Position numbers and translations under genes: made by a program. Of a stretch of 51,179 nt of DNA, positions 312 to 47,451 are shown piece after piece. Source of the stretch: Candidatus Altimarinota bacterium (GTDB lineage Bacteria; Patescibacteriota; Gracilibacteria; BD1-5; UBA6164); assembly GCA_020631575.1 (NCBI GenBank), contig JAHDGX010000002.1, positions 1 through 51,179 on the forward strand. The letters run 5' to 3'. Numbering within the stretch: the stretch's first letter is position 1; each line of letters starts with the position of its first letter. Under the pieces are notes generated by a model. The model was given only the letters and a program-made list of their open reading frames with translations, made no database searches and was not told where the DNA came from.

Positions 312-3300
312 ATGAACACGGGTCCTGAAATAGACATGTCACGACTTGAGAATTCTGAAACTGAAGCAAGTATTAGAGACGAAACAAAAGCATTGCTCCA
401 GGAAGCAATGTCTATTGTTGAAATGTCCCAAGGAACTGAAAAAGAAGAGGATTTTAAAAGAGAGTATGCTGAACTTGCTGAAGAATATAATACTCGTTTT
501 GAAGATGGAATTATAGATTCAAGTGACCTTCATGCCCTCAAGCAAGAACTAGCAGAAGTTCAGGAATGAAGAGAAATATCGTTAGTCGAACATTACATGC
601 TTGATCATATAAAAGCAACGAATGAATGAATATTGAGTGGGGATGAAAGTGTATTAGATGAAAATCTTACATGGTATGCTGATGTATTTAGTTCAGATAC
701 TTTATTTAGCCCTGCAAAAATTTGAGCAAGAGCATATATTACTTCAGGTGAATGACTCAGTGATGATAGAATGGTACACTATCATGGTAGAATAACCGAA
801 CTCCAAAATAGTAATGAATCAAAGTATACAAAATTATTTCAACTTTCTCAAATCATCTATGATGTATCAATGGAATGAAACATGTGAGGTGGTATGATGG
901 AATCAGCTCATAATAACGCAACTCGAGAGCTCATTAAACAAGTAATTGGAAACTCTGAGCAAAATTTAGCCGTATGATATACTCAAGAAAGATGATATTA
1001 CACTGTTGAATGATCAAATATTGATACTTCAAATGACATGGAGGTAGGAACATACCTTTGCTCGCTCAATAAATCATGAAAACTTACAAAAGAAAACCTA
1101 CTTACACCTAATGGTCCATTTTCTCCGAATGATCTTTTTGATCTCATAAATAAATTTGAAAGCTGAGTATTTTGAGGTCCAGAAGTTCAAGGACTGTTTA
1201 TATGATATCTTGATGGTTTTGAAGATAACATGAATGCAATTGCAGAAAATTATCTGGCAAATGAACAAAACTGAGCTCACATTATAGCATTTTTAAATGC
1301 CCAAGAAACTTCTGGTAATGATCATCCTCTTGTTAATGAAAATAATATTTGAGATATATTTACTGCCACTGAGGATACTGATATCAGTTCCCTAGAAAAC
1401 GAACAATTACGACAAGTTCTTCTTCAAGAAAGAAGAATGATAGCAGCTCAAGCACTAATAAATGAGATTCTTTGAATATATGAGTGAGGTCCAGAGATTA
1501 GAAATGAACTTACAATGATTATCGAAGGTTCTGCGAGATGAGAACATAGTATGTTCGGTTTTACAAGGGTAAACGAAATAATATCAGAGTATAATGCAAG
1601 TGTATGAGACAATGAAAAACAATTTACTCTCATCGAGTGAGACCTTAAAGATACTATTGATAGAACTATATCATCATTTGATGAGGCTCATATGGCTGCA
1701 CAAAGCTATATGTCTACCCTCACGGAATTAGAAAATATAAAGGCCCAGGGAGAAGAGAAAGCTGAAGAACTTCAATCTTTACAAGCTGAACTCATACAGG
1801 CTGTAAACCAAGTTCCTATCGATCAAGCTAAAGTAGAAGAATTACAGGAACAAGTGCGAGCACTTAGGTTTGCTAGTTTTTATACAGAGATGCAAGCGTC
1901 CCAAGTAGAAGCAGAAGTTGAAGCTCAAAGAAGAAAATCTGAAGAAAGTACACATGAGGTTGAGAGAGTTGTGAGTGAATTTGACAGATACTCTACATTA
2001 TTTCGTAGAGAAAGTATAGATGAGGTATCAAAGTCACAAGAATCATTTAATTTATTAATCTCATCTGTACGTTCATCATCTGATATTACATATCTGTATA
2101 ATAATCATTCTGACTACTTTACCAATGTACATTTATATATGTTACATAAAGATGTTCGTTCTGATTTAGATGTAATTAGATGATTCCCTAATCTTCTAAG
2201 AAAAGAAGACTTACACTCAATAGACTCATGATTCTATCAAGAAAGTGAGCATATCTGATACCTCATTGAAGAAGCAGTTGAACATAGCCAATGAATGGCA
2301 AGCAAAATACAGTTTATACTTCTAAGGAATTACGAAGCAAATAGTGAAGATGTAGCTGCAAGTATTAGTCAAATACAATGGGTGCTTCAATACTCTAATT
2401 TAACAATGCAACAAAAGGAATATGTAAGAAATAATATCCCTACTGTGCTTATCAGGGCTGATGAAGAAAATGCACTTCAAATACCAGATAGACCAGAAAG
2501 AATTTCAACAATAAGTCTTGAAGAATTTAGTATACTATCTGTGAAATTAGAAGATTCTCAAACATTGACACTATCTGAGAGAAAGGACTTTGATATATAT
2601 ATTGGTAAGTACGGATTGCATCAAAATAAAAGCTCCGTTATAAATTTTATTTCTCAATGATATTTTGATTGAGCATCTGAAATACAGAGACTTGTAAATA
2701 GTGATTTTATTTCAAAACTAAGTGATAGGCATGAATCATCAGAATATTATCAAGTAGCTCTAAATAGTAACTTAGCAAACATAGTATACTTAAATCAAAG
2801 GTGTAGGAATGATTATTTAAGCCTACAAATAATCATTGAAAAATCCAACAATGAAGAAGAGCTAGTAAAATATTTACAATATACAGAAATTGGGAATGCT
2901 TGAGATTTTATACTGGTATTTAACTGACTAACAAGAAAACTATGATCAGAGGCAGCTGCAAGAAATGTAATCGGAAGTATGCCACGATTTTATAGTTCTA
3001 TCCAATCATTATATGAAAGTGAGTCAACCAACGAAGAAGATAAGCAAACGATGTGAAAGATACTCGAAATATATGCTCTTATAAAAGAGGGGTATATACT
3101 ATGAAGTGAAAATATGGAACGAGCATTAAACCAGTGACATCATGAGAGGCTCGTGATTAGATGATGAGAAAATATTCTATCAGAAATGCTATGAAGAAAT
3201 GTAAATGAGCGTGAAAAAAGTATAATAAAAGGTATATTAACCGTAGACGAGCCTAGTAGTCTAGACCTAAGAAACATCATAAGTATCTTCTGAGAAAGTG

Positions 3301-4433
3301 ATGAATGAGAAGCCCAAGCTAAAGAATTCTTAGAAAGAATAGCTAGTATGAGACTAGACGAAATATTTGCTGAAGTGGATAGGCTCCTTCTGGAGATACA
3401 ACCTGCTGAATCAAATACTGAAGAGTTTAAAAATTATTTTTCGAATGGAGCTCTAGACAGAGATGTATTTATAGCTTCATTAAATCAGTATATAAGTGAT
3501 ACTACTCTAGAAAAAACTGATAATGAAAATCAGAAAGAATATGAGTTAAGGGTCCGAAATGCATTTATAAGTCAATTTTGACTTTCTCAAGAACAAGCTA
3601 AAAATATTTCAAGAATATTAGAGTTAGAAAGTAATGCGGTTAACTGGAGTATACTTTTATCAAATAGTGAAACAGCAGCTCGTTGAGAAAGAGTTGATTA
3701 TCAAGCTGAACGTAGTAAGCGTCGAAGTAATGGAACTCTATATTTAACTCCATGAGAAAGAGGGTGAAGTGAAAGATTTAACTATGAAACCTGAGAATTA
3801 GAGCCAAACCCCAACTACCAACCACCTGAGGCTCCAGAAAACGATAACTCTCAAACTCCTCTACCAACAGAAAATTGATGAGAAACACCAATTTCAAATA
3901 ATTTTGAATATAGACTCTCATGAAGTAGAGATAATCCTGTAATTGAAAGCTGAGATAGTGTTATACCTATTTCTGAGCAGGAAGCTGAGCTTATCGAAAG
4001 TAATCCTGAAGCCGCAAAAAACATTATAAATATGTATGAATTCTTTAAAGATCTTAATTTACTTTGAGTCTGGGAATACAGAGAAGAGCTTGTCACAGCT
4101 GTATGAGAAGTGAGTATAAACCTAGAGGATGATTCTCTGAGAGAAGATGAACTACTACGTTTTGGGAGAAAAATACTTATTTTGGTACAAAATGTAGAAC
4201 AAGATCAAGCACAAACAGAGTGAAGAGAAGCAAATACAATAAATACTGAGGTATCAAGCCTTGATTCTCTTAATTACCAATTATCAAGATTTAGTGGATC
4301 AAGAGAACTTTGGTGAGACGATCGATCATTCAATACCTACTGAGAAGATAGGTTTGAATCTTGGATGAGAAGTTATTGAATCATTTGAGGTATTACATTT
4401 CACACCAATAGAGTCAGAGAAATGATGAAATAA
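312..4433 (+). CDS. giant acidic hypothetical protein, 1373 aa under code 25
   Basis: Track ORFs at 312, 1692, 2295 and 3348 share one phase. I walked the frame from ATG 312 to TAA 4431-4433 and saw only TGA interruptions, no TAA/TAG. Glu/Leu-rich with coiled-coil-like stretches (AEELQSLQAELIQAV). No signal peptide, TM segment or motif I recognise. Confidence 0.75.
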
Positions 4434-21155: not shown

Positions 21156-21271
21156 ATTGCTCTATTAATGTATTATTATTGCTAACATTATATATAAATA
21201 ATCTGCAATACAATTTACATTCTTTATATTTTTTCTATCATATTTTTATTATACTCTCTTCATCCATTCTC

Positions 21272-22306
21272 ATGAATTTTGTAAAAAATTATTTTTCAAC
21301 TCTTGCATTCCTCGCTATTTGATATGTATTTTATAGGCAAAATGAAACTTTTCTTAACTTCTCATATGGAGGAACAAGTCTAAGTTTCATAGATATTTCT
21401 GTTCAATATCATAATATCTTTTATGCTATTCTTATTGCTTATACTATCTTACTTATACCATTTTATATTATATATCCTCACAGATCAAAAGCGCGGCTTG
21501 CTATAAGATATATATGGGAAATTATAAAATGATGAGAAAATTACTGACAAAAGCACAAAACAGCTCTCCTAGCATGGATAGTGAAGTTATTTTTTGCTCC
21601 TCTTATGATAGTCTGGATCACACAACATGTTTTTAATCTTTGAAACTCGCTCTACTATAGTTATCAAGGCATTTCACTCTTTTCTACAGATTTTCTTCTC
21701 TTCTTTAATAGCTATTTTTTCACTCTTGCCTTTACTGCTATTCTCTTTTTTGATGTCTTATTGTTTACTCTCTGATATCTTTTAGAATCTCCGGCTTTTA
21801 AAAATACTATTAAATCTGTAGAGCCAACCATCTTAGGATGGTTTGTAGTACTTATATGCTATCCTCCATTTAATACACATCTTACTGAGATGATTTGATG
21901 GTATTCAACGGATTTTCCTCAGTTTATAAATCCCTATATTCATGTAAGCCTCAATATAGTAATTCTCATCCTCATGGGAATCTATGCTTGGGCATCTATC
22001 GCGCTTGGACTTAAAGCAAGTAATCTCACGAATAGATGAATCATATCAAGAGGTCCATATAAATACGTACGACATCCAGCCTACATATGTAAGAATCTTG
22101 CTTGGTTTATAGGAGCTCTTCCTCTACTATGGGTTGCTATCACAACTGACGACTTACTCTTAAGTAGTGTGCTCATAGGGACTCTGTGATGGGCTTTCGT
22201 GTACTATATGAGATCAATGACTGAAGAAGCGCATCTCTCCCTTGATCCAGAATATGTAGCTTATAAGAAACAAGTTCCTTATAAATTTATACCAAAAGTA
22301 TGGTAA
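21272..22306 (+). CDS. polytopic membrane methyltransferase, ICMT/PEMT superfamily, 344 aa
   Basis: Whole frame walked with no TAA/TAG. Multiple TM segments are present. The C-terminal motif NR[G]IISRGPYKYVRHPAYICKNLAW...EEAHL is typical of isoprenylcysteine carboxyl / phospholipid methyltransferases. Confidence 0.75.
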
Positions 22307-22348: not shown

Positions 22349-25300
22349 TTACCGTGCAACCTTTTGAGTTTCTAGATATTCTGATTTAAACTTCCCAACG
22401 AGTGGAGCAGTATCAGATAATAGTTTCGAACCAAAACTTACAATTGTACCTGGAGATAGTTGAGTTCATGTTTTCTCAATAAAGTATCTGTTATCAACAA
22501 GATTATCGATATCTCATGAGAGAGATCCATATACTACAAGTTGTTTTTCAGACTCGTCGGAGATAATATATCCTCCTCAAGCTGATGTAGGTATAGCAAT
22601 ATATGTTCCATCGAGTCTATCAACATCAGAAGCAATATTAATATTTCCTCCTTTCACTACAAATGCTACATTTCTATTTCCACTTACAATATCTTGCGTT
22701 AGATTCAGATCTCATCACTCTACGATATACGTTGTAGATTCCGTAAGTGTTGGGAGTGAACCAAGAGTGATGTTTTTCCCTTTAATAACAAATACATTTT
22801 TGAATCCATTATAGTTATCAAACTTATCATATCCACTTACAGTAGTGGTAGTAGGAGCCGTTTCAGTTGTAACTGAAGTTACATCATCTGTATACTCTGT
22901 TTTTTCATCTGCAACATCACTGATTACTACCATGTCTGTATTGTTCTCAGAATAACTTGATATTCATCCCGTACTTACTGAGGTCCCAACAAAGTTTTTG
23001 TTATCAGTATATCCTGAGATTCCTTGAGTAATCTTACTCACATCACCAGAAGTGTTAGATTTCACATATGAAGTTCCTCAACCAATTGTTACCACTGCAG
23101 GTTTTGCAACTCTCACATTAAGGTCTGCTGCAAAATATGCATTATATAGTTCCTCAATAGATCCATTATTATCAATATCATCTTTGATAGATGTAGTAAT
23201 TTTTGCTGATCCATAACTTTGTCCTGCTGGGATAGCGTTTTTATTTGAGATAAACTCTGGGTATACATACCTTGCAGTATCAGAAATAACTTGGTTATCA
23301 CTTACAGCTTTGTATACTCCATCACTTGTATCTTTTACTATGAAAAGTTTATTATATCCATAGAGCATTCTATTTTGCAAGTCAATACAAATTTCGTTTC
23401 CTGAAGCTTTATTTACAGAGTTATCACCATCAGTCTTTTTTACGCATAGTTTATCAAATGAATAATCATACTCTGATGTATTTTCGATGTATGGCCAAGC
23501 AGGTACTTTTGAAAGTACATTTTGATTGTGTCCAACTATGATGTCTTTCTCTGGTCCGAATTTGATTTCCCCACCTCTTGGAGTTGTAGAAATCTTAGGA
23601 TCAGGATTTCCAGATGAACTCCCCCCTGAACTTGAGCTCGTTGGCAATTTACATGTTGCACTACAAGCAAATCCTGGTTTACCATTGTCAGTTCCCATAT
23701 CACACTGTTCTCCTCTTTCTGGCTGCACAATACCATCACCACAAATAGGGTTTGTCTGGATTTGACATCTATCTTCTGTAATCCATTTATTGCTTCCTGA
23801 TGTTCCAATCTCATCTACCGAAAAAGTAGAGTCGACTGTTTTCTTTACGTAACACCTTGGGAATGGATCGCTACAAGAAAACTGCGCTGTTCTTGCCCCT
23901 GTAGTTTCTCTAATAAGAGCAGCACCAGTTTTTGGAGTAAGATATATATCGTCTCCTGTAGTTGCATCTGTTCCACATTTCATTGCGATTGATTGCACTC
24001 TATTATTTCCCCAACATGTATATGAGTTTCCAGGATTATCTATGATATCTGTACATCTCGCGGGTGATCAACTACTTGATGAAGATGATGAACTCGTTGG
24101 TGGAGTAACGTTAAGTGTTCTTTCACAGGTATTTGATGTAATAGTATCATTTACAAAACATTTAGCTGTATAAGTACCAATTGTACTCAGTGTTACTGTG
24201 CCAGTATTTTGGTTCAGAGTATTTACAATATTTCCTGCAGCATCTCTTACCTCAATTTTGTACGTACTTACATTAGTACCAGTACAAGTAAGTGTAGAAG
24301 TGAGAGTGCTTACGCTACTTGTTGGTGAAGCTGTAAGAGTGTTACATACAGCTACTACACCATTCTCAATGGTAATTGTTTCAATATCATGATCATCTTC
24401 ATCTCATCCGTCGTTACAACCTGCTGTAAGATCATTATCAACAAGGTTTGTTGTTTCACCATTTCCTCCTCTTACTCCATTTCCATTTGTATTATCTGGA
24501 TCACTATCACAGTCATCTCAGTCATCTCTGCTAATCTCAGCAAAGTTTGAAATACTTGCTGGGGCATTATCATCGATAGTAAATGTTATATCTAGATCAA
24601 CTGGCACTCCATTTGCTGGAAGGCTTGCTATAGTTCTCACTGCTGTAGAGCCTGATTGAGTCCAATTAGAATCATTAAGCGTAAGACCTGTAGGAATATA
24701 ATCTGTAATCTCTATGTTAGCTGCATCTATAGTACCTTGATTTACTACTCTTACTGTAAATGTTACGCTATCTCCTGTATTGAATGGTCCAGTAGATTTC
24801 AAAGTTTTTCTCAGAGCAAGATCATAAGCTGGTGTAATAACAGTAATTGTTTCAATATCATGATCATCTTCATCTCATCCGTCGTTACAACCTGCTGTAA
24901 GATCATTATCAACAAGGTTTGTTGTTTCACCATTTCCTCCTCTTACTCCATTTCCATTTGTATTATCTGGATCACTATCACAGTCATCTCAGTCATCTCT
25001 GCTAATCTCAGCAAAGTTTGAAATACTTGCTGGGGCATTATCATCGATAGTAAATGTTATATCTAGATCAACTGGCACTCCATTTGCTGGAAGGCTTGCT
25101 ATAGTTCTCACTGCTGTAGAGCCTGATTGAGTCCAATCAGAATCATTAAGCGTAAGACCTGTAGGAATATAATCTGTAATCTCAATATTAGAGGCATCTA
25201 TATTTCCTTGATTTACTACGGTTACTGTGAAAGTTACATCATCACCTTTAGTAAATGGTCATGCTGATTTGAGGGTCTTAATAAGTGCAAGATCATACAC

Positions 25301-26446
25301 CGGATCTGTTATAATAATTTCTTCAATATCATGGTCATCTTCATCTCCTCCATCAGTACAACCAGGCAATATTGCGTTATCAACAAGATTTGTTGTTTCA
25401 CCGTTTCACCCTCTGACTCCATTTCCATTTATATTGTCTGGATCACTATCACAATCATCCCCATCATCTCTGCTAATTTCAGCAAAATTCTGAATCACTC
25501 AAGTTGCGTCTGAATCAATAGTAAATGTAATAGGTAAACTTGTAGAAGAATCAGCAGCTAGAAATGGTATTACTCTAGTTGCTTTGTCTCACGATTGAAC
25601 CCATCAGCCATCAATAAGAGTAAGTCCATTTGGGATATAGTCTGTAATCTCTATATTATTCGCAGGAACATTTCATTGGTTTACAACGGTTATTGAGAAA
25701 GTAATATTTTCACCTGCTATAAATGGAGCCGCAGAATTTTGAGCCAAGGTTTTAAATAATGCAAGATCATATCTACTTTCAACACCACAAGTACTACTAC
25801 ATCCGTCACCTCCAACCGAATTACCATCATCACATGTTTCACCTTGATCCGTTTCTAATATCCCATCACCACAATATCGTAGCTCAATATTAAAACACTC
25901 ATTTTCATGAATCTCATAATCTTCAACTTTATAGTGTGGGTAAGTCTTTGTACTATGTGACCAAGCTCATGAATTGAAATTGTATTGGGTATAATTTTTC
26001 ACTCTAGTATTGGAACCATTTTGAGTAATTTTACCATGTTTAATGTTATACACAAACTGTAAATTTCTTTTTGAATTGTCTGTCGGTTTATGGAAAAAAC
26101 ACTGGGCACCAAATGCTACTACCCTAGTGTTATTTCCAGGGGCAACTTCGCTTTTTCTTTGCCAAGCATCAGAAGTTGTACATCATGAAACAAGGCTTGC
26201 ATCAGATCTCCAAAAAGATATCTTTGAAGTAGTAAGAGCTATATATCTATCTTCATCACTCCACATATCATCTATAAGATACCTATCAATTGTTTGTCAA
26301 TTTATATAGTATGATTTCTCTCTTAGTGCTCATGTACACTGGGCATCTCATAGCTTAGAAGATATTTCTTCTACAATTGCTGCCTGAGAGACAGAGGGGA
26401 TAAAAAATATACTTACTAGTATACTAAAGAGTACTATTCTTCTCAT
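22349..26446 (-). CDS. giant secreted repeat protein / putative adhesin, 1365 aa
   Basis: Track fragments ending at 22933, 23998 and 24802, plus the ATG at 26444-26446, share one phase. Signal peptide: [22 protein letters not shown]. There are two Myxococcus-type Cys-rich repeats ([29 protein letters not shown] and [21 protein letters not shown]...CSATC). Three 157-aa DUF11-like repeats follow (YDLAL.KT...VTFTV.VVNQG...[13 protein letters not shown]), each ending in an acidic [12 protein letters not shown]...DEDDHD module. The stop is TAA at 22349-22351. Confidence 0.85.
24380..25792 (-). repeat. 3 x 471-bp in-frame tandem repeat inside the adhesin gene
   Basis: The anchor tcaatatcat recurs at 24381, 24852 and 25323, a period of 471 nt (157 codons). 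Copies 1 and 2 are identical for about 286 nt (24381-24666 versus 24852-25137) and then diverge. Copy 3 is clearly diverged. Confidence 0.9.
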
Positions 26447-27807: not shown

Positions 27808-30800
27808 CTATTCCTCTCCATCATCTGGATCTGAAGGGGTTTCTTCTGATCATGTTCCAACCTCTTCTGATCCCGTACCTTCTGAACCTGTATCGTTAGG
27901 ATCTGTTTCTGTTCCAGTTCCTTCTGTCCCAGTTCCTTCCGTTCCAGTTCCTTCCGTTCCAGTTCCTTCCGTTCCAGTTCCTTCTGTCCCAGTTCCTTCC
28001 GTTCCAGTTCCTTCCGTTCCAGTTCCTTCCGTTCCAGTTCCTTCTGTCCCAGTTCCTTCACTTCCGGTTGAGTCGTTTTCCGATCCAGTTCATGCTGGCT
28101 CTGGCTCTGGAAGAGTTGTAATATCAGGATTTTTAACATCCGTTACGAGGTCACTCGATGTGTCATGAAACTGTGAAGTACAGAGTGCTCCAAGTACACC
28201 ACATGGAAGACCGTTTCTAAGGAAGTTATATCCTTCAGCTAATATTGGTGGAGCTCAGTTGAGTAATACAACTTTTTCTGATGGTCCACATCTAATAAGT
28301 CCTTGATCGTCTGCCATTCTAAGACCTCACTCAGTGTTTGTCGTAACAACTCCAAGATATCTATATGAGCTAAGTGTAAGAGCTTGTTGCCCTAGGTCTG
28401 AATTCATTCTCTCTTCAGCAGTAGCAAATTCTTGCATATCACTCACTTCTCCTGTCGTGGCATTATATATAGCGATTGTATATTTCCCTGTTTCTGGACT
28501 AATTCCTCACATAATAAATGTATTTTCTGACCTGTCTCATGTTTCTGCATGTTTTAGACCAAAAGAGATATCATCCATTGCCAAAAAGCTTGCTTCATTT
28601 TCACTCATAATTTCAGCATATTTATCTGGGTTTTCTCTTCTCACCTCATCCATAGCTCCTGAGAGCGTTTTAGCAGAAATATCTACTTCGGAATCAGTTG
28701 CAGCTTCAGCTTGAGCATCGTGATATGCAGTATAGTCAACAACACCCTGATTATCAGTATAATCAGAAATATCTGCAAGAGAATCTTTATACTCTCTGAG
28801 TTCTGTATACCATGATTCTTCCGTAAGACCTCCTGTTTGAGAATTTATATCGTAAATCCTATCAATAAGAGACCTACTTGCCTCAAGACTCATATTTCCT
28901 GACATGATTTCTCCCGAAAGTCATTCTCTATTTGCTCCTGAAGCAGAAAGTTCAAACCATCTTGATGTTACTGTCTCACTTCCTGTTAGTCTTGTTCCTT
29001 GATATACAGCCTCCGATGTTGATGAGCCATCAAAACTTACTAGTGCTCCCGTGTGGTCTGCAGTAAAACGCTCAGTGGTAATTGTTTGATAATCATTCAC
29101 AAAAGTTCTGTGAATATCTTTATGTATTCTTGGTCTTCCTCTAAGCCCATTATTAATCTCCCCTCTTACACCTGCTTGATCCACAACATCAGCATCAGGA
29201 TATCAAACTGATACACCAAGTATAGCTCCTAGGGCATTCATACCTGTATCCAATCCCCCCCTTACATTTGCGAGCTTAATAAGTTCTCCTATCTCAGCTG
29301 CTTTAGCAATATATGATGCATGGATAGTAGTTATTAGGTTGACCGTATTTGAATTTATGTCCAATTGTTCACCTGGTTGATCAGCAAATATATCACTACT
29401 CATTTTAATTACTGATATGAGCATATCTCCTGTAACTTGTGTAGATTCTAAATGTGATCCAGTATCACCAAAGTATGATAGTGCTTCTCTTAACTCTAGA
29501 ACTTGGGCTGCGTTCATGTTTCTCATTGATTCAATAAGTTCTCTCACTCATTGAGTGTCAGCTTCTATCATCTCTACAAGTTCTGTGTTTGCTCCACCAT
29601 TTGTAAGTTCATTTATATAAGCATCCAGTTCAGATTTCTGTGCAGCTTCGAGAGCTGCTTGAGCTTGACTTATCGCTTGTTGGTTTTGGTCTGCGGCATC
29701 TGTAGCAGCTACTGCTTCAGCTGTCTGTGCATTTACAATTCATCTTGCTTCTAAAACTGCTGTATCTGCAGCTTCATCATTTGTATTTGCTGTATCTTGT
29801 GCAGTAATAGCCAAATCAAGAGCTGTCTGAGCATCTGCTGCTGCTTTTCTTGCCGTATCTACTGCTGCTTGAGCTTGAGCTACTGCTGTATCTGCAGCTT
29901 CATCATTTGTATTTGCTGTATCTTGTGCAGTAATAGCCAAATCAAGAGCTGTCTGAGCATCTGCTGCTGCTTTTCTTGCCGTATCTACTGCTGCTTGAGC
30001 TTGAGCTACTGCTGTATCTGCAGCTTCATCATTTGTATTTGCTGTATCTTGTGCAGTAATAGCCAAATCAAGAGCTGTCTGAGCTGTAGATGCTCAAGAT
30101 TCTGAAGTTTTAAGAGCCACATATGCCTCAGCATGAGCAACTAAATCAACTGCAACACTCCCGTCAGAGTTTAATTTTCAAGTTACATAGTTTATAAGAT
30201 CTTGATTCGAGTCAAAATTTAATGCATCTAGATCAATAGCAGCATCTACTGTATTTCCCCAATTTGCTCATGAATAATTGATGGCTAATTTTCAATTTGA
30301 ACGTATGAATAATGGGTCAGATGCAACAATATTCCATGAACCAATTTGATCAGAAATCGCTTGCAAAAGTGCCTGTCTATTTCTGGCAGTTACAAGTGAG
30401 GCTTCAGGATCAGATAAATCTGACAAATAGTCATCAGAGTATCCAAATGCATCAAAAGCTGCTTGTGCTGTTGATTCGTTCATTCTTGCTTGAGAAGCAA
30501 TGGTTCTTGCTTGAAGAAGCTGCGTATTCGCTGAATCAAGAGCTTCTTGAGCCTGTGTAGCTTGAGTTGTTGCAAAAGTTAATGCTGCTTCTCGTACTGC
30601 AAATCTCTCATCGGCTGCTCCATCAACAGATTCCGCTCTTGCAAGTTCTGCATTTGCTGAATCAAGAGCTTCTTGAGCCTGTGTAGCTTGAGTTGTTGCA
30701 AAAGTTAATGCTGCTTCTCGTACTGCAAATCTCTCATCGGCTGCTCCATCAACAGATTCCGCTCTTGCAAGTTCTGCATTTGCTGAATCAAGAGCTTCTT

Positions 30801-31668
30801 GAGTTTCAGTCGCTCTTTTAGTAGCCGTATCTAGATCTCTTACAGCTTGTCCTGCCTCAAACGTTTCTCTCGCAGCTGCAACTCTTAGTGATTCATCTGA
30901 TCATTCTACAGCTTCTAACTTAGCTGCCGTATCATTCAAAGCACCTTGAGCTTCAGCAGTTTGAGCTGCAAGAGCTTCTGCTGCTTCGCTTTGTTTGTAT
31001 TCGTTGAATGCACTCGTTGAGCTTGATCCAATGGAACCTCTCGTTCCATTAGTATTATATCATAGGGCTGTAAGAGCGAGTTGAACAGCTACTCTCTCAT
31101 CTAAACTGAGAGCTTTTACCTCATCTATAGTGGCATATCCTGAAAGAAGTTCTTTTGCCTGCGATACTTCGAGTTCTCTTGCCTCTCTAGCTGCTTGAGC
31201 TTCAGCTATTTTATCTTTTAATACTGAGTTAGTCATTTGGATTAGGAGAGAGATTCTTCCTTGGTCAATTACACCTCCGTCATAATCACTCATTATTTCT
31301 TTGAGAACTCTTTTTGTACCATTTCAGATTCTACCATCTACCGTAATAGTTGATTTATCAGAAGCTTTCAAAAAGAGATTCATGATGAATTGAACAGTTT
31401 TTTGCTCTTTCATTGTTGGATTGTCTTTAGCGCTATCTGGAGTAACATCTCCAAGTTCAGCAGCAATTTCTCCAGCAATAGAAAGCTCTCACTCCATTTT
31501 AGCTAGAATAGCTTCCTGAGCTTCGGGAATACTGCTAAGAGCCTCAATGTCTGACATACTGATTTCTTTATCAGCAATTGCAGTATCTACAGCAGGAGTA
31601 TCCATTCCTTGGTAGTTCGCTACGGTAAGCATAAACAGTGTTCTATAGTTTCGTAGTAGTGTAAACAT
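27808..31668 (-). CDS. giant Ala-rich coiled-coil protein with PG-binding-like motif and (EGTGT)n tail, 1286 aa
   Basis: Six track fragments (31293, 30483, 30066, 29547, 29184, 28905) share one phase. The first ATG is at 31666-31668 and the stop is TAG at 27808-27810. The N-terminal TVDGRI[G]NGTKRVLKEI resembles the PG_binding DGxxGxxTxxAV motif. It has two families of 42-aa repeats, a globular region of about 450 aa with no motif I recognise, and a C-terminal GTEGTGTEGTGT tract. Confidence 0.8.
27905..28072 (-). repeat. 15-nt (5-codon) tandem repeat encoding (EGTGT)n with a 60-nt higher-order unit
   Basis: The unit gttccagttccttcc alternates with the gtcccagttccttct variant at every fourth unit. 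Only the Gly/Thr phase is continuous with the upstream 3.7-kb ORF. Confidence 0.9.
29757..30083 (-). repeat. 126-nt (42-codon) tandem repeat, about 2.6 copies
   Basis: The anchor gctgtatctgca recurs at 29759, 29885 and 30011. The repeat encodes AQTALDLAITAQDTANTNDEAADTAVAQAQAAVDTARKAAAD. Confidence 0.9.
30531..30803 (-). repeat. second 126-nt (42-codon) tandem repeat, about 2.2 copies
   Basis: The anchor ctgaatcaagagcttcttgag recurs at 30531, 30657 and 30783. The repeat encodes EALDSANAELARAESVDGAADERFAVREAALTFATTQATQAQ. Confidence 0.9.
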
Positions 31669-31851: not shown

Positions 31852-32535
31852 TTATCTATTTCTAAATTTTAGAAATCCGAATCCTAGCATAAGAGCTACA
31901 AATGCAAGAAGTAAATGTTCAGCTCCGGTTTCTGGAAGTCTTGGAGGTTGTGGTACTGATGGTGGAACTTCTCCTGCTCCTGAAGTGTATAGTACACACT
32001 CTCTATGTTGTAGCGTATCAGTAGATGGAGCTCCATCTGCTTCAATGTTATGTACTGCGATATCATATACTATCATCCCAACGTTTCCTCCGGCAGCAAC
32101 TGGGTTATTTGTGAGTTGGTAGGCACTTCCTACTGTAGATTCAATCCATTTTACACTACTACCTGCAGAAAGGACGTTTCAAAGTGACTCATCACTATAT
32201 AAGGCATCTAGATCTGAAGTGTATGTCCAAAAATCTACACTATCGCTTGCTGTAACTTCTGTCCATGAAGCTCCTCCGAGTGATACAATTCTTGGCATTT
32301 CTTGTTCTTCTTTGAATAATACCTGATCTGTTGTTCCATCATTATTCCAGATATCATCAAGAAGTCCTTTATTATCTCCTTGAGATACAGCTCCTCAAGT
32401 AAAACATTGATCACAACTATTTGCAGCGTAAACAGAGTCAGCACTACATGTTACTTCTTCATACGCAGCGTATGTGCTTGTTGTCATATAAGCAAGCATA
32501 ATCCCTGCTGCTATGATTTTTGAAAATGATTTCAT
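31852..32535 (-). CDS. LPXTG-type sortase-anchored surface protein, 227 aa
   Basis: Signal peptide: MKSFSKIIAAGIMLAYMTTSTYA. The C-terminus is PPRLPETGAEHLLLAFVALMLGFGFLKFRNR, i.e. LPETG, a hydrophobic segment and a basic tail. Confidence 0.8.
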
Positions 32536-34465: not shown

Positions 34466-36526
34466 TTATTGCCAAAATCACTCACACCCTTCTCTAGAAT
34501 TTGAAAATGGTCAATTAAGCCCAATAAATCCTGTCGTTATTGGTGTGTCATTCACAACACCAGAAGAAATGTCATTTCACCATGACGTAATGCTTCCATC
34601 TGGTTTTAATGCATGGTAACTTCATTTCGCAGAATAAATATTAATATATCCTGTATCAGTCGGTTCTCAAAGTCCTCCCATTGTATCACTTCACCAAGAT
34701 GCAATACTTCCATCTGCTTTCATTGCTGCGAATCAATGTTCTTGGGCATAAAACTTAACATATCAGTTATCAGTTGGCTCTCAGTCAGCCTGAGTTCACC
34801 ATGATGAAATAGAACCATCAGCTTTTACTGCCATCATTCCTCAATACGTAGAAAGTGCTTTTACATACCCTCCATCTGTAGGAGCATCATCTCGTAATGT
34901 AGCATTTGCTGAATATATCCATAGGGTTCCATCTGCTCGAATTCCAATAAATCAGAAAAAACCTCATATAAGATCTACGAATGTATCTGTTGGAAACTCA
35001 TCTCAGTAATAATACAGCTGTCACCATATATGAATAGTTCCATCATCTCTTAGAGCTCAAAAGGTATTCCCCGTACCTACTACCTTAGTAAATCATGATC
35101 CATATGAGGTAACGAAATTTCCATTTGGATCTAATATTCTTCCTCCATAAGTCGTGTTTCCCCATACATGAATACTCCCATCAGATTTTAAGGCTCAAAA
35201 GGCTCATCTAAAATTTGAAAATATTTCTACATATCAACTATCCGTAGGAGTGTTCAAATTCCCCCATCATGTATCTCACCACGACACAACTCTACCATCA
35301 GAATTAAGAGCCGTAAAGGCTCTTGCTGTTGCTACTACAGAAGTATAGCCACTATCTGTAGGTCCTCATACTCATCATCTTGCTGGGTCTCACCAGGTAG
35401 TAATAGATCCATCTGACTTCAGAGCTGCAAACGCTCACTGTGTTCATGAAACAGTAATATAACCATTATCTGTTGGGGCTCCTGTGACCTCATTATCCCC
35501 ATCTGATCACCATACTGTCATGGATCCATCTGGCTTAAGAGCAACAAAGTTTGCATATATTGTAAAAAGTTGAACATACCCGTTATCGCTAGGGGCTCCT
35601 ACTCCTCCATAAGTATCACTTCCCCATGATTCTATACTTCCATCTGTTTTTAACCCTGCTAGGGCTCTACTATTTCCATATGCATTATTTGCTGCAGATT
35701 CTATTGTATAATACGCATTTGAATCACCACAACTATACTGACCTATTGTTAAAGGTAGACTTGGTAGTGTAGGTCAATTATTTTGTATCCCTCATGGACA
35801 TCTCCCATCCTTATTTACATCGAAACACTGAAAAGCGTTATCTACCACTCTCCATCATTTTCATTTTCTCACTATAAGATCTCATAACTCAGAAAATGTA
35901 GCTCAAGTTCCCGTAACGTAATCTTCTCATGATAAATAAGAGGAGAGAACATAAGTATTTCCTATATCTGTAAGCTCAAGAGTATTTGAAGTAAACGCTA
36001 AATCTTCAAGTGGTAGATTTGTAGCTTGCTGGGTCATAATACCTAAAGATGTCCCAAATGTCCGAGGATACCTATCTTGATTATCTGAATGTACTGAAGG
36101 AAGCAGAGCTAGGCTACTCATTTCTTCTTCCATGAATGCCATAAACTGAAAGGTTTTTTTATTAGATCATAAAAAATAACTATAGTACGTATCATCTTTC
36201 GGGTCCTTAGTATTTTCATCCATTCATATAGTTTCTAGTACATCTTTTCCTATTTTTCCCTGAAATCATACGATTACTCAACTTGAAGTGATAGTAATAC
36301 TGTTATCTGGGAGAGGAAGTTTCTTTGAAGTTGCATATTGTTGAAAGGTTTCAACTGCCTTAGTGAGAGTTGCTATTCTTTTTGTATCCCTCGCTCACAC
36401 AAGATATCAGGTATAAGAAACAAAACCAATTGTTGAGATAATTCCAACAATTGTGATAACAACGATAAGCTCTACAAGTGTAAAAGCTCATTTTTTAGAA
36501 CCGTGAAAACGAAGAATATTATGCAT
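34466..36526 (-). CDS. type IV prepilin-like N-terminus fused to about 10 RCC1-like beta-propeller repeats, 686 aa
   Basis: The N-terminus MHNILRFHGSKK[G]AFTLVELIVVITIVGIIS is a class III (prepilin) signal. The C-terminal 450 aa carry about 10 repeats of the form ALK.DGSI..WG...GG.....P.D.GY. The start, track fragment 36142 and stop TAA 34466-34468 are all in phase. Confidence 0.8.
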
Positions 36527-36528
36527 AA

Positions 36529-36570
36529 AAAAACCTTATAAATAAATCTGCTTATTTATAAGGTTTTTTT
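36529..36570 (-). terminator. intrinsic terminator after pyrH
   Basis: 16-bp stem: aaaaccttataaataa pairs with ttatttataaggtttt, with loop atctgc. Confidence 0.6.
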
Positions 36571-41549: not shown

Positions 41550-41963
41550 TTATCAGCCTATGGAGAACATAACTTCTATAACGATTCTCACAATTCAAGA
41601 AGCTAATAAAAGTCCTAAAAACCCTAGCATCGACCACTTTACAATATCTTTTCATTTTTTAATTTTTTCATCTTCTCATACTGATATAGTCATCATGAGA
41701 GCACCATACACTATCGCTCATACTGCAAGAAGCCCCAGAAGCATAGAGAGTTGATTTGTCCAATATACCACTTTATTTTTTACCCCTCACTCTATAAGAC
41801 CATCTCAAGGATTCACAAGTGTAGAGTCTCATAAGCAGCCATCAAGTTCATAACCAATATCTCATCCATTATATTCACAATCTGCATGAATATGAGGACT
41901 GAAAATACTCAAAATACTTACTAAGACAGTAAGACTTACAAGAAGTGAAAATATTTTTTTCAT
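41550..41963 (-). CDS. VirB2/TrbC-like small membrane protein (pilin-like paralog A), 137 aa
   Basis: Walked codon by codon. It has a signal peptide (MKKIFSLLVSLTVLVSILSIFSPHIHA), then TM1 (LSMLLGLLAVGAIVYGALMM), a charged loop (SVGEDEKIKKGKD) and TM2 (MLGFLGLLLASGIV). Confidence 0.7.
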
Positions 41964-41971
41964 GATAAAAT

Positions 41972-42355
41972 TTATAATATATTAATTCCTGCAATAAATC
42001 GTACAAGAGCCCAAGCTGCAGCTACTGCAAATATCCCAATCGCTGCATAAATAAAACTGTTAAATGCTTTTTTGAGTTCTTCTGGATTTCAGCGAGCCAT
42101 AAGAAGTCTTCATCAGATGTATATGAACATACCAATAGCAAGAAGTGCCATAAGATTAAATATACTATCTTTTATAAATTCTAATATTACGTCGAGAAGT
42201 CTCTCTTCTGTTTCTCATGAAGTGATAACGCTCGTAGATCCAGCAGGAGTGATCTGACTTTTAAGGTCTTCTGATGATCTTGGGTCGAGGGCTTGAGTGA
42301 TGTTACTCAGGCTCATGTAGAGAGCTGTAATAGTTACGAAAATACATGCTTTCAT
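41972..42355 (-). CDS. VirB2/TrbC-like small membrane protein (paralog B), 127 aa
   Basis: Walked codon by codon. It has a signal peptide, then TM1 (LMALLAIGMFIYI), a charged loop (ARGNPEELKKAFN) and TM2 (AAIGIFAVAAAWALV). Its start codon overlaps the paralog C stop (TAATG). Confidence 0.7.
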
Positions 42356-43217: not shown

Positions 43218-44354
43218 ATGAAAATTGCCATTCTCCATGAAATGCTGATAAAGAAATGAGGTGCTGAGAAAGTAGTCTCTGAGCTTATAAATATTTTTCC
43301 TAAGGCTGATCTTTTCACACTCATATATGATGAAAAAAAAGTCTGAAATATATTTCCAAAAAATACTATAGCTCCTGAATGTTTCAAGCTTCTCAGTCAA
43401 AAGGTCTATAACATTACAAAGAGGCAGCGTCTCTGCCTCCCATTTATGGCCCGCTCAGTTGAAGCCCTGGATTTTTCATCGTATGATAGAGTAATTGTCA
43501 GCTCAAGCTGATTTGCTCATGGCCTAAAAACAGTAAAAGACACAAAAACAATCATATATTATCACGCTCCTGCAAGGTATATGTGGGACTGGGCACATGA
43601 ATATAGACGTGACATCAACATGCTCAGGTGAATTCGATGATTTCTCTATGGAAGATTTATGAAAAATCTCAGAATATGGGATTATAACGCATCTACTCGT
43701 AATGATACTTTGCTGGCCAATAGCGCTACAACTCAAAAAAGAATATATAAATACTTTAGAAGAGAAAGCGATATTGTGTTTCCTCCTATTGAAACTCAAA
43801 GATTCTCACAAACTCTGAGTAATTACTCTCCAAAAGAAATATTTTTCTCAAAGCCCTACTACATAATATTATCAGCCCTGACAGAGTTTAAAAAAATAGA
43901 TATTGCAGTAGAGGCTTTTGCAAAAATACCTGAAGTGAACCTCCTCATAATCTGAGAGGGAGAATACAGAAAAACTCTTGAAGAGCTCAGCTGAAATGCT
44001 GCTAATATACGCTTTAGTTGAGCGCAATACTGAGATGATCTCGTACATCTCGTACAAAACTCGCTGGGACTTATATTTCCTGGGGAAGAAGATTTTGGTA
44101 TTGTTCCTATAGAGATTATGGCTGCAGGAAAGCCTGTTTTTGCCCTAAATAAGTGAGGTCTTACAGAGACTGTTATAGCCTGAAAAACTGGTGATTTTTT
44201 TCACAACGAGGACTGAAGTGATTTCATACAAGAGTTTCAAGTCTTTCACAAAAATAATACTAAAAATCAGTACTCTCCAAAAGACTGTTACACGCAAGCT
44301 GTGAAATATGATACATGAATATTCAAAAAGAAAATTCAAAAACACATAAAATAA
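43218..44354 (+). CDS. GT4-family glycosyltransferase, 378 aa
   Basis: In phase with track ORF 43659-43955. The motif GEEDFGIVPIEIMAAGKPVFALNK[GG]LTETV is the retaining GT-B (E..G...lEAmA.G.PV) signature. Confidence 0.8.
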
Positions 44355-44426
44355 ATCACTCATCTCTTCTTTGACTTGGAGGGATTTTTATGTATATTAA
44401 AAAAAATATTTTTCTTTCGTATATAT

Positions 44427-45767
44427 ATGAAAATTCTTGCTCCTATTTTGTTCTTCCTCTTGCCACTCCACGCATTTATTATAACAGTACTTAAGTGTAA
44501 ATATTCAGTTGATACCAACATCCTGAGGTTCTGGAAAGAAATTATGCTTTCAATCATGTGAATCATCATTCTCTATCAAGTCTACAGATCAGGGTCATCT
44601 CTGAGAAAACTCTACAAAAACAATACGCTTCTCTGGCTCATCAGTATCTTTATTGCTTGCTGCTGAGTATATATGTACTTCCCGTTTTTTGAACTTAAAG
44701 CAGCCTCAGTACTTGGGTTTCGTTATGATGCCTTCTTCTTTATTGCAATGATCGTATGACTTTATAGTGGCCTTATGTGAGAACTTCGTTCGCTTGTAAA
44801 AGTCCTATTTATATCAACTTTTTGAATCCTCATAATATTTCTCCCATGGTATCTTTTCGGAGATATTTCATCTCTCGCTGTAAAGTTTGGATACTCAGCT
44901 GAAGTATCAACCTATACTGCCAATAGTTGTATCAGTTTTGCCCAAAACGTAGATGGACAACATAGGTTTCAATGAACATTTGGATGACCAATTCGTTTCT
45001 CTGTATTCCTAACTATAGTGGGATCTCTCTTCGCGGGATGGCTTCTCTCATCGACACGCTTTACAAGAAAACAACAATACCTACTCGCTACTTGATTTGC
45101 AACTCTTATTCTTCCTGCTATATTCTTCTCGTATTCTAAAACATCTATTCTCTGAGCCCTCTTTGCAGCGTGAATATTTGTACTACTTGCGTACAAATAC
45201 ATACACAAAAAGAAAATAACTCGGCAATTTTATACCTACATGGCTGCTGGATTTACGACCCCCATCATTCTGGTTGCTCTCTTCAAGTGGGAATTATTCC
45301 TGCATTTATGAGCAGTACTCAATAGACTCGAAAATCTTTGAAAATCTGTGGAAATGTTCTTCTATAATCCATACTGATATGGCTTATGAATAGCTGGCCC
45401 AGCAAGTCAGATAGGAAACTCCATTGAGTCCGCTTGATCATGGCAGGTTGCAACTGCAACGGTTCTTAGAGTTCATAAGTTTCTTCCTGAAAACTGGTAC
45501 GTGCAAATAGCTCTTGAAATGTGAATCATAGGTATAAGTCTTTTTATGAGCCTGATTATTCTCATCGGATATAGACTGATACATCTCATTAAAAACAAGC
45601 GTGATTACATGAGCGTCTGAATTGCAACCGCATACTTCGCACTCTGTTTTATGGCTCTCTTCACGCACGCATTTGAAGAAGCTGCTACCAGTTATATACT
45701 CTTTTTCATTATTGGTATCGTACTTGCTGAAAGCATGAAAATAGAGCAAACAAAAGCAAAAAACTAG
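44427..45767 (+). CDS. Wzy_C / O-antigen-ligase-family polytopic membrane protein, 446 aa
   Basis: About 10 TM segments are present. The motif RVHKFLPENWYVQIALEM[G]II[G] resembles the conserved (H/N)N.yLq.l.e.GiiG loop of the O-antigen ligase / Wzy_C family. An alternative TTG start lies at 44376. Confidence 0.7.
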
Positions 45768-45768
45768 T

Positions 45769-47451
45769 ATGACCTACAAAATATCATATACATTCATTGT
45801 GGGGTTAATATGTATCCTAGGATCTCTCTATACAAGCTTCTTTTTTCATCTTAATGATATTATAAAAGTAGCAGATAGTTTTGCCTATTTTCAGATGAGT
45901 CACTTTCTTCAAAGCCTTTCTATAGAATGATTTTGAAATGGGTGGTTTGGATTTCTCTACTCCCTTCCTATTGCTGCAGTAAACTACGTTATTCACTCTG
46001 AAGTACTCGCAGCAAGAATCGTTAATATAATTCTTCTTAATATTTCAGCGCTCTTACTCTGGAAGGTATCAAGAAAAATTCTCTCCCAAAACTGGTCATA
46101 TATTGTGCTCATACTCTTTTTTATACACCCCACACTTCTCCATTTCCGAATTCATATACTGTCTGAAAATATATATATTCCTCTCTTTTTATCACTCTTT
46201 CTTTCGGTTATTATTTTTATAGAAAATATTCATTCTTATAAGAAGAGTGTCTCACAGACTATACTCATTGCGTGTCTTATCTGACTCATGTATCTTACCA
46301 GAGCAGAGGCATTTATATATATTGGTTCTATTGGAATAATCGCTTTATCTCTTATGATCAAGTGATCCATAGATATAAAGAAATTTCTCTCTCTCGGAGT
46401 TGTATTTTTTATAACATTTTTCTTGTTCATATCTCCATATTTGTTTTTTCTTCACTCTCTCACATGAGAATGGTGACTCACAAATAAATGAGCCTCAAAT
46501 CTCCGGCAAGCAGAACTCAGAGGGCAAGAGCAAATGGATGATAGTTGATTTGAAAGAGCTGTAGCAGAGCTCACAAGTGATAATAAACATCTCATTGCTG
46601 GTTTTGCAGGATGAATGCCATATAGTAAGCCTAGTATTGAGTGATCCCTTAAAAACTTTATATTAAAAGATCCTACATGATTTATTGATAGGATTCTCTG
46701 AAATCAAAAAAAACTATACACCACAAATTTTTCAGAGCTCTTTCTTGGTAAATCCCCTCAACTCTATCATTCAAATGACACAAGGTTCTCGCACCTGGGC
46801 TTTTTAGTAATAGTTCTTATTCCTATCTTCATATTTTTGCATGGTTTGCGAGAGCTTTATAAAAAACAAAAAAAATACTTTGGAATACTACTAAGTTTCT
46901 TTATTCCAGCATGTTTATTTTTCACACTCTTCTTTACGCTCAATAGATACTTTTTGATATTCATACCTTTTCTCATACTCATTTTTTGTTATGGAGCCAG
47001 CCAGCGAAATTCATTTAAATACACGAGTATTCTCAGCTGAGTAAGTATGATCTGTTATATTTCTCTCTTACTTCTTTCTACCTTTGTGTACTACAATACT
47101 GAATCACCAAAAGATAGTTATTATGAGCTCAAAAAAGAGGCTGGAGTATGGCTTTTTCAAAACATAGAAAATCCTCAAGAGTTGAAAATTATGGAACGAT
47201 TTCCTATCGTGACCTATTATTCTGATTCTAAAATACGCTACATTACCCCCTATACTTCCAATATAGAAGATATTTATGAATATGGCTTACACAATGATAT
47301 TGATATTCTCATTGCCGACAGTATGGACTTTCAAACCTATAGGCCAGAACTCAGTTATATCCTCTCTAAGACTCCAGATAACTTTAAACTGCTCAAAGAA
47401 TTTACAAACAGTAAAGAGCAGAAAGTTATTTTGTACAAACTCAAAAAATAA
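45769..47451 (+). CDS. GT-C-type (ArnT/PMT-like) membrane glycosyltransferase, 560 aa
   Basis: The ATG follows the previous stop by 1 nt. The frame is in phase with track ORFs 46837 and 47047. It has a multi-TM N-terminal two-thirds and a soluble C-terminal domain. The functional assignment rests on architecture only. Confidence 0.55.

Follow-up and report, generated by a model that had tools for sequence, protein, structure and literature searches.

Whether a protein that begins as a prepilin and ends as a beta-propeller is a pilus subunit is the question raised by a minus-strand gene located at 34466..36526 in contig JAHDGX010000002.1 of a Candidatus Altimarinota bacterium. The window analysed is the entire contig (51,179 nt), and searches of the organism's own genome are limited to this stretch. 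The gene is regarded here, with a probability of roughly 0.68, as encoding a modular type IV pilin of a bacterium of the Gracilibacteria class using genetic code 25. Its product features a leader, a pilin carrier, a linker and a propeller head, and all the parts of the gene described below lie on the minus strand.

Reading frame and genetic code

Under translation table 11 no long open reading frame (ORF) runs across 34466-36526. The frame is interrupted by 43 stops ahead of the terminal TAA, and every one of these is TGA. Translated with code 25, in which TGA specifies Gly, the gene consists of 686 codons followed by the TAA stop, and encodes a protein of 686 amino acids (aa) starting with MHNILRFHGSKKGAFTLVELIVVITIVGIIS. 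The predicted mature product (672 aa, 71.3 kDa) is acidic, having a pI of 4.4.

The decoding of TGA as Gly is borne out by alignment to standard-code homologs, in which the 43 TGA positions are found opposite Gly in 49% of the alignment cells. For comparison, GGN codons of the same gene are opposite Gly in 55% of the cells and TGG codons are opposite Trp in 74%. Trp is absent among the top residues facing the TGA positions, and the reading of UGA as Trp (code 4) is ruled out, as TGA columns match Gly and not Trp. TGA is used as a sense codon in every gene of the window, and the contig is therefore assigned to a code-25 organism. A tRNA-Gly(UCA) was not found in the window, where the sole tRNA is a tRNA-Thr. 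The closest relatives of the N-terminal module are all encoded by metagenome-assembled genomes labelled Gracilibacteria or Peribacteria.

The public entry corresponding to the same gene, P0001, has TGA translated as Trp, is 94% identical to the code-25 reading and has no precomputed Pfam domains; many homologs in the public protein collection are similarly inflated in Trp. The code-25 translation passes both prepilin and RCC1_2 models, whereas P0001 carries no precomputed domain, and the use of the wrong code in databases may contribute to the under-annotation of pilin-propeller proteins.

The class III signal and the cleavage register

A class III prepilin signal had been proposed for the N-terminus by the first-pass annotation, and is found. 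The N-methylation models PF07963 (24.3 bits against a cut-off of 21.2) and TIGR02532 (23.3 bits against 16.3) both score above threshold, and a profile of the carrier family matches solved pilins. In a six-frame scan of the 51-kb window the prepilin motif occurs once, at this gene. Signals of this class are expected to include some 20-25 hydrophobic residues and a Glu at position 5 of the mature protein; the segment starting at F15 (F15-TLVELIVVITIVGIISTIGFV) is hydrophobic over such a length and has E19 at +5. No variation is seen within the carrier family at residues F15, T16, L17, V18, E19 and L20.

The leader peptide (aa 1-14, MHNILRFHGSKKGA, 36485..36526) is basic, and has Ala14 at the -1 position. 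Leaders of class III signals end in Gly or Ala (PMC10191384). In the eleven closest carriers the column preceding the invariant FTLVEL hosts Ala, Gly or TGA-encoded Gly, and many close homologs lack any Gly there, the sequence being K/Q/R-A-FTLVE. Of 45 related genomic loci, about 20 have Ala at -1 and about 22 have Gly. Mature pilins of the PDB, whose chains start at the processed Phe1, align by residue 1 to F15 in single-sequence searches; residue 1 of solved pilins is also opposite F15 when the carrier profile is used, 16 pilins being matched (best E=2.2e-7). Given the Ala/Gly occupancy of the -1 column and the alignment of residue 1 of PDB pilins to F15, cleavage is predicted to occur between Ala14 and Phe15, which would place Phe at +1 and Glu at +5 behind a canonical leader of 14 residues. 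An atypical register, with Glu at +6, had been suggested earlier. Glu19 is indeed six residues after Gly13, but Gly13 is not the cleavage residue, and the register is the usual one. That the lineage alternates between Ala and Gly at -1 is an addition of the present analysis.

The pilin carrier and the linker

The mature protein starts with the alpha-1 helix (aa 15-67, 36326..36484), which has Phe15 at +1 and Glu19 at +5, is covered by PF07963 and TIGR02532, and includes the hydrophobic alpha-1N tract (aa 15-36, 36419-36484). The helix and a beta-rich globular part together make up the carrier (aa 15-245, 35792..36484), as defined by homologs and by the profile alignment to the 16 solved type IV pilins. 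At the carrier end is the Cys234-Cys243 loop CFDVNKDGRC (35798..35827), which contains an EF-hand-like DxNxDG tract and is kept in the four closest carriers; the match of the loop to Pfam EF-hand_5 is weak (E=0.058). The loop may bind calcium or resemble a D-region.

The AlphaFold2 model of this protein was built on P0001, that is with TGA as Trp, and was considered together with the model of P0037, a correctly translated homolog. In the P0001 model a helix is found at 17-67 (pLDDT, the predicted local distance difference test, 74-86), and the stretch 248-282 is disordered, with pLDDT below 50. The linker joining carrier to head (aa 246-265, GIQNNGPTLPSLPLTIGQYS, 35732..35791) falls accordingly in a low-confidence part of the model. 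In the P0037 model (mean pLDDT 82), a helix (13-64) is followed by strands (74-177, pLDDT ~80-89), a helical spacer, ten strand triplets and a terminal strand.

The propeller head

The head spans aa 266-681 (34484..35731), and is made of ten BLIP-II-type blades (aa 286-680), with a terminal strand at 667-670, the whole being bracketed by Cys266 and Cys681. Repeats are 35-46 residues long and fit the consensus xFxALKxDGSIxxWG…PTDxGYxxI, their DG anchors being at aa 295, 333, 372, 410, 449, 495, 532, 570, 605 and 643. The count of about ten RCC1-like repeats given by the first-pass annotation is thus correct, but the repeat region covers ~395 aa (286-680) and not the last 450.

The attribution of the repeats to RCC1 required revision. 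The Pfam family RCC1_2 (PF13540) is matched with E=1.1e-11 and 44.6 bits against a cut-off of 22. PF25390, the model of the RCC1-like domain (RLD), scores 34.7 bits and fails its cut-off of 150, and no match to the classical RCC1 family PF00415 was found in the Pfam scan of the protein. RCC1 proper is defined by blades of 51-68 aa with four strands each and by an RLD model above cut-off; it is ruled out here (PF00415, WD40_RLD) by the 35-46 aa repeats, the low PF25390 score and the missing PF00415 match. In the search for N-methylation and propeller families recommended earlier, PF07963, TIGR02532 and RCC1_2 therefore pass and classical RCC1 does not.

Profile and fold searches converge on BLIP-II. 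Searched against the PDB, the family profile retrieves BLIP-II as the first match (E=2.7e-16, residues 4-255 of 273), and HERC2 and UVR8 weakly. Matches were given by the profile search only, as the propeller alone found none in the PDB with phmmer. In Foldseek searches the top match of both models is again BLIP-II (best E=1.6e-12, 20-25% identity), followed by UVR8, the CRINKLY4 ectodomain and RCC1; all four have a probability of 1.0 and E values between 1e-12 and 1e-9, with template modelling scores (TM-scores) of only 0.3-0.58. The TM-score against BLIP-II itself is modest (0.5-0.58), a value consistent with the superposition of seven blades of a putative, wider ten-bladed ring on a seven-bladed one. 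In a viral fold library only RCC1-annotated proteins of giant viruses and phages were matched, the best being from Megaviridae (410 aligned columns, root-mean-square deviation 4.6), and these matches are uninformative on function.

The P0001 model is confident over residues 288-670 (pLDDT mostly 80-94), where ten consecutive strand triplets are followed by a last strand at 667-670. Members of the RCC1/BLIP-II superfamily are expected to have seven blades, but here ten repeats are counted, and ten strand triplets are found in both models. With its short blades, each of ~38 aa and in each of which three strands are detected, the head is classified as BLIP-II-type and not as classical RCC1. Of the earlier description, an RCC1-like propeller of about ten blades, the ten blades are retained, while the type is reassigned on the evidence of profile and fold.

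Exactly two Cys flank the repeats, Cys266 just ahead of blade 1 and Cys681 with only five residues after it. Of 12 pilin-propeller homologs, 10 share this pair (examples are P0037, residues 316 and 722, and P0081, residues 323 and 732), which is present also in homologs having a Sec signal, such as P0003 (28 and 436) and P0002 (35 and 439). Because an extra strand follows blade 10 and the Cys pair surrounds the repeats, the head is probably a single closed ring, held by a terminal 'velcro' strand and by a Cys266-Cys681 disulfide. Such a clasp would imply an extracytoplasmic location.

Carriers and heads in related proteins

Carrier and propeller have different relatives. The N-terminal 230-250 residues are 44-51% identical to Gracilibacteria pilins which have different C-terminal parts. 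On the same carrier, DUF285 repeats (P0078, E=6e-88) or fibrinogen-C (P0111, P0116) are found as alternative heads, and several further heads have no Pfam match. The other pilin-propeller proteins are more distant in this part, as only ~130 residues can be aligned to the present carrier, with 31-39% identity. For the propeller, in turn, identities of 45-47% are reached with non-pilin proteins that have ordinary signal peptides and come from standard-code bacteria. The propeller module is widespread, being found in 37,501 representative clusters at E<=1e-3 and in 2,560 at E<=1e-30, and giant proteins often hold several copies of it.

The complete layout of pilin and propeller is featured by ~10 representatives among the top 150 (clusters at 50% identity); counted among the top 120 matches, the architecture is found in at least 12 clusters. 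The closed Gracilibacteria genome CP042461.1 hosts three tandem pilin-propeller paralogs, as well as genes in which the prepilin is joined to Fib_succ_major or to fibrinogen-C.

As the carrier is close to pilins having other heads, and the propeller is close to non-pilin proteins, stems and heads appear to be mixed and matched, and by sequence comparison they are separately exchangeable cassettes with separate histories. Exchange of cassettes would let a lineage vary what its pili bind, and suggests how the specificity of host recognition could diversify. A broader scheme can be put forward only tentatively, and is on balance doubtful. Gracilibacteria would possess a combinatorial library in which a few carriers are combined with interchangeable heads (propeller, DUF285, fibrinogen-C, Fib_succ_major, unknown folds), some of which would be derived from, or common to, the surface proteins of other bacteria; the choice of host or prey would depend on the head, and the propeller pilin would act as a determinant of host range. 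If true, the library would be analogous to the shuffling of phage receptor-binding proteins.

Pilus machinery in related genomes

Genes for pilus assembly are found in relatives. In two related loci, L043 and L052, pilins of ~205-260 aa are located beside a PilB-like T2SSE ATPase (E=7e-111 and 2e-116, respectively) and a PilC-like T2SSF protein. A T2SSE protein of ~360 aa, the size of PilT, is confirmed in L043; in L052 a 359-aa ORF with a Walker-A motif comes from a motif screen only. The genome CP042461 is reported to encode PilB, PilC, PilD and two PilT, to have no PilQ, and to feature 15 large proteins labelled 'GspG', 528 aa long on average (PMC6851277). The obvious objection of size to the export of a 71-kDa subunit falls, therefore, as there is no secretin.

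An ORF of ~630-680 aa is interposed between the PilB-like and PilC-like genes at L043 (11918-13948), L052 (7713-9614) and L003 (18440-20341). Only the L043 copy was scanned; it is a phosphatase of the SpoIIE type, and may regulate the pilus machinery.

Signs of expression level

TGA is unevenly used among Gly codons in the window. Its share is 0.44 in the pilin gene, against 0-0.19 in genes for ribosomal proteins, IF2, GyrA and RpoA; it is 0.10-0.18 in three genes for surface proteins (22349-26446, 27808-31668, 31852-32535). Most of the remaining genes have values of 0.43-0.67. Highly expressed genes seem to disfavour TGA as a Gly codon.

A terminator-like hairpin, with a perfect stem of 19 bp and a U7 tract, is located at 36527..36570 on the minus strand, between the pyrH stop and the pilin ATG. 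Its minimum free energy is -22.7 kcal/mol (z=-7.2), and none of 200 shuffled sequences was as stable. In the wider predicted fold, stems flank the start codon and the A of the ATG is paired; the only AAGG resembling a Shine-Dalgarno sequence is within the 3' arm. The hairpin is probably the pyrH terminator. A scan for consensus promoters and terminators was uninformative, and missed the hairpin because it includes only 2 GC pairs. Taken together, TGA usage and hairpin hint at a low expression of the pilin gene.

Likeness to known systems

Modular pilins are defined as pilin modules onto which a domain with no specific tie to pili is grafted (PMC8179133). The protein described here, in which a carrier, a linker and an RCC1_2/BLIP-II-type propeller follow each other, has this composition. 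The PilB and PilC proteins of Streptococcus sanguinis, the only such system investigated in depth, have a vWA head and a lectin head, respectively. They are low-abundance adhesins (PMC8179133; Shahin et al. 2023, PMC9934059), and similarly join a class III signal and a pilin module, through a short linker, to a bulky binding domain not specific to pili. PilC, which has retained Glu5 and is large (52.8 kDa) as is the present protein, has been modelled along with PilB at the pilus tip, beneath a cap lacking Glu5 (PMC9934059). S. sanguinis is a monoderm without secretin, and the genome CP042461 likewise is reported to lack PilQ. The present protein differs from PilB and PilC in the ten-repeat BLIP-II-type head, the much larger carrier of ~230 aa, the use of code 25 and the location of the gene outside a pil operon.

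BLIP-II of Streptomyces exfoliatus (PDB 1jtd, 3qhy) shares with the head the short repeats of ~38-40 aa, with three strands detected in each. BLIP-II has seven blades. It is a soluble secreted inhibitor devoid of a pilin stem, whereas the present protein has such a stem and ten repeats. Under the doubtful library scheme outlined above, the propeller may bind a protein of the host envelope with very high affinity, as BLIP-II does its own partner.

A beta-propeller adhesin is presented at the pilus tip also in diderm type IVa pili, where it is represented by PilY1/PilC (discussed in PMC8179133). PilY1, the propeller of which is of the family IPR008707, is carried by the PilHIJK complex of minor pilins without being a pilin itself. 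Identity of the present protein with the PilY1/PilC tip adhesin is ruled out, as no such Pfam match was found and the protein has a class III signal of its own.

A close counterpart is P0037, one of the large 'GspG' prepilin-type proteins encoded by the genome CP042461 of Sieber et al. 2019 (PMC6851277), in which prepilin N-terminus, carrier, ten-repeat propeller and Cys pair are all present. Aligned across 92% of the query, P0037 shows 31% identity, and it is labelled at NCBI as a prepilin-type cleavage/methylation domain protein. The CP042461 genes have a carrier of a different subfamily and are located in a tandem cluster of modular pilins, whereas the present gene is solitary between pyrH and rpmH. 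The hypervariable PTD-repeat gene described by Sieber et al. was also considered, and a connection was ruled out, as it encodes a different protein. Six singleton architectures in which IPR012902 is associated with IPR000408 or PF13540 are listed, without comment, in Dataset S1 of Raynaud et al. 2021 (PMC8179133).

Both the grafting of a binding domain onto a pilin and the existence of prepilin-RCC1 architectures were hence on record, and the advance is incremental. The analysis adds the affinity to BLIP-II, the count of ten blades with a conserved Cys pair, and the evidence that carriers and heads are exchanged. For Gracilibacteria and Absconditabacteria, epibionts and predators of which few or none have been cultivated, the propeller pilin is a concrete candidate for host recognition.

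Proposed role and alternatives

By analogy with characterised modular pilins, the protein is most likely a low-abundance pilus subunit displaying an adhesin, and probably one that binds a host. A tip-located adhesin or minor pilin had been envisaged by the first-pass annotation. Of this proposal, the pilin stem and the propeller of about ten blades are supported by hidden Markov models, profiles, AlphaFold, Foldseek and homologs of the same architecture; location at the tip and adhesion are inferred from the likeness to other systems. A minor status is suggested by the small conserved pilins adjoining the machinery in relatives, by the TGA share of 0.44 and by the hairpin at the start of the gene.

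The prepilin would be inserted into the membrane through Sec. Prepilin peptidase (PilD) would then cut the 14-residue leader after Ala14 and might methylate Phe15. The PilB/PilC machinery would extract the 71-kDa subunit, which would join a type IV pilus by way of its alpha-1 helix and lie either below a capping subunit close to the tip or at scattered positions on the shaft. The ligand of the acidic propeller would be a protein or a glycan on a host or prey cell, and retraction driven by PilT would pull the cells together.

Several observations weigh against a modular pilin. The gene is set among housekeeping neighbours, the order being RNase J, a lipoprotein, PyrH, the gene itself and rpmH-rnpA-yidC. 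Pfam and motif scans of the 51-kb contig revealed neither a prepilin peptidase nor PilB, PilC, PilT or a further pilin. The neighbours of the gene in the window were not found near related pilins, and no synteny with pilus genes was detected. Of the lollipop fold of pilins, the helix of ~50 residues is modelled, but the globular part (to about residue 245) is poorly so in P0001, which has TGA as Trp: its pLDDT is 35-70, and the fold searches yielded no pilin head domain among their matches. Both the closure of the ten blades into one ring and the disulfide are deduced from the primary structure. Finally, the arguments for low expression, based on TGA usage and on the hairpin, are soft. A 375-aa membrane protein encoded at 21179-22306 was considered as a candidate prepilin peptidase and ruled out, being ICMT-like.

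The lack of pilus genes nearby in the window would suit a surface protein anchored in the membrane or borne by a pseudopilus, in which the class III signal would serve for export and anchoring only, whether cleaved or not, and the propeller would be exposed at the cell surface by a monomer or by a very short pseudopilus. Sugar-binding proteins of Sulfolobus that have class III signals (the 'bindosome') provide a likeness. The same explanation fits a lineage rich in large prepilin-type proteins, with 15 'GspG' averaging 528 aa in one genome (PMC6851277) and dozens of such proteins in related loci, more than a tip complex needs. It is nonetheless unlikely, since the invariant FTLVEL with its Glu5 fits the docking of subunits in a filament (PMC10191384), PilB, PilC and PilT are present in relatives, and the bacterial modular pilins characterised so far sit in pili. 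Far less probable still is that the N-terminus is an ordinary signal anchor, left uncleaved and resembling a prepilin motif by chance. The N-methylation models do score only a few bits over their cut-offs, but residues F15-L20 (FTLVEL) do not vary within the carrier family, the 16 solved pilins found by the profile align exactly from mature residue 1, and the motif is found once in six frames of 51 kb.

The modular pilin could also be the main building block of a thick, specialised pilus in which every subunit has a propeller. Monoderm-type cells lacking a secretin (no PilQ) have no channel limiting the size of the subunit, and most pilins in these genomes are large. This arrangement is nevertheless quite improbable: the small conserved pilins of ~205 aa located by the PilB-PilC-PilT cluster in relatives are better candidates, the TGA-rich codon profile is that of weakly expressed genes and a hairpin covers the start, and the shuffling of heads and carriers, along with the occurrence of several paralogous copies, is typical of accessory subunits.

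Other genes of the window

The window hosts other genes, among them some for putative filament or surface components. A 1373-aa ORF at 312-4433 on the plus strand includes 53 TGA codons (TGA/Gly 0.63), and has neither a Pfam match nor an obvious signal peptide. Two putative large surface proteins are encoded on the minus strand. The one at 22349-26446 (1365 aa) features three DUF11 repeats, DUF4215 and DUF7507; the one at 27808-31668 (1286 aa) has no Pfam match, and contains long tandem repeats rich in Ala, Gln and Thr and a C-terminal (GTE)n tract. Close to the latter, a secreted protein of 227 aa (31852-32535, minus strand) has no Pfam match and terminates with LPETG, a hydrophobic stretch and an RNR end, an organization resembling a sortase signal for sorting to the cell wall. 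Two adjacent small genes at 41550-41963 and 41972-42355, both on the minus strand, match PF18895 (T4SS_pilin) with E=1.8e-7 and 4.9e-14, respectively. The products of this pair (41550-42355) are conjugation-type, VirB2-like pilins, and belong to a filament system other than the type IV pilus. A glycosylation cluster is located at 43218-47451 on the plus strand, and includes a GT1 glycosyltransferase, a Wzy_C protein of the O-antigen-ligase type and a PMT_2 protein; enzymes of the Wzy_C family include pilin O-glycosyltransferases.

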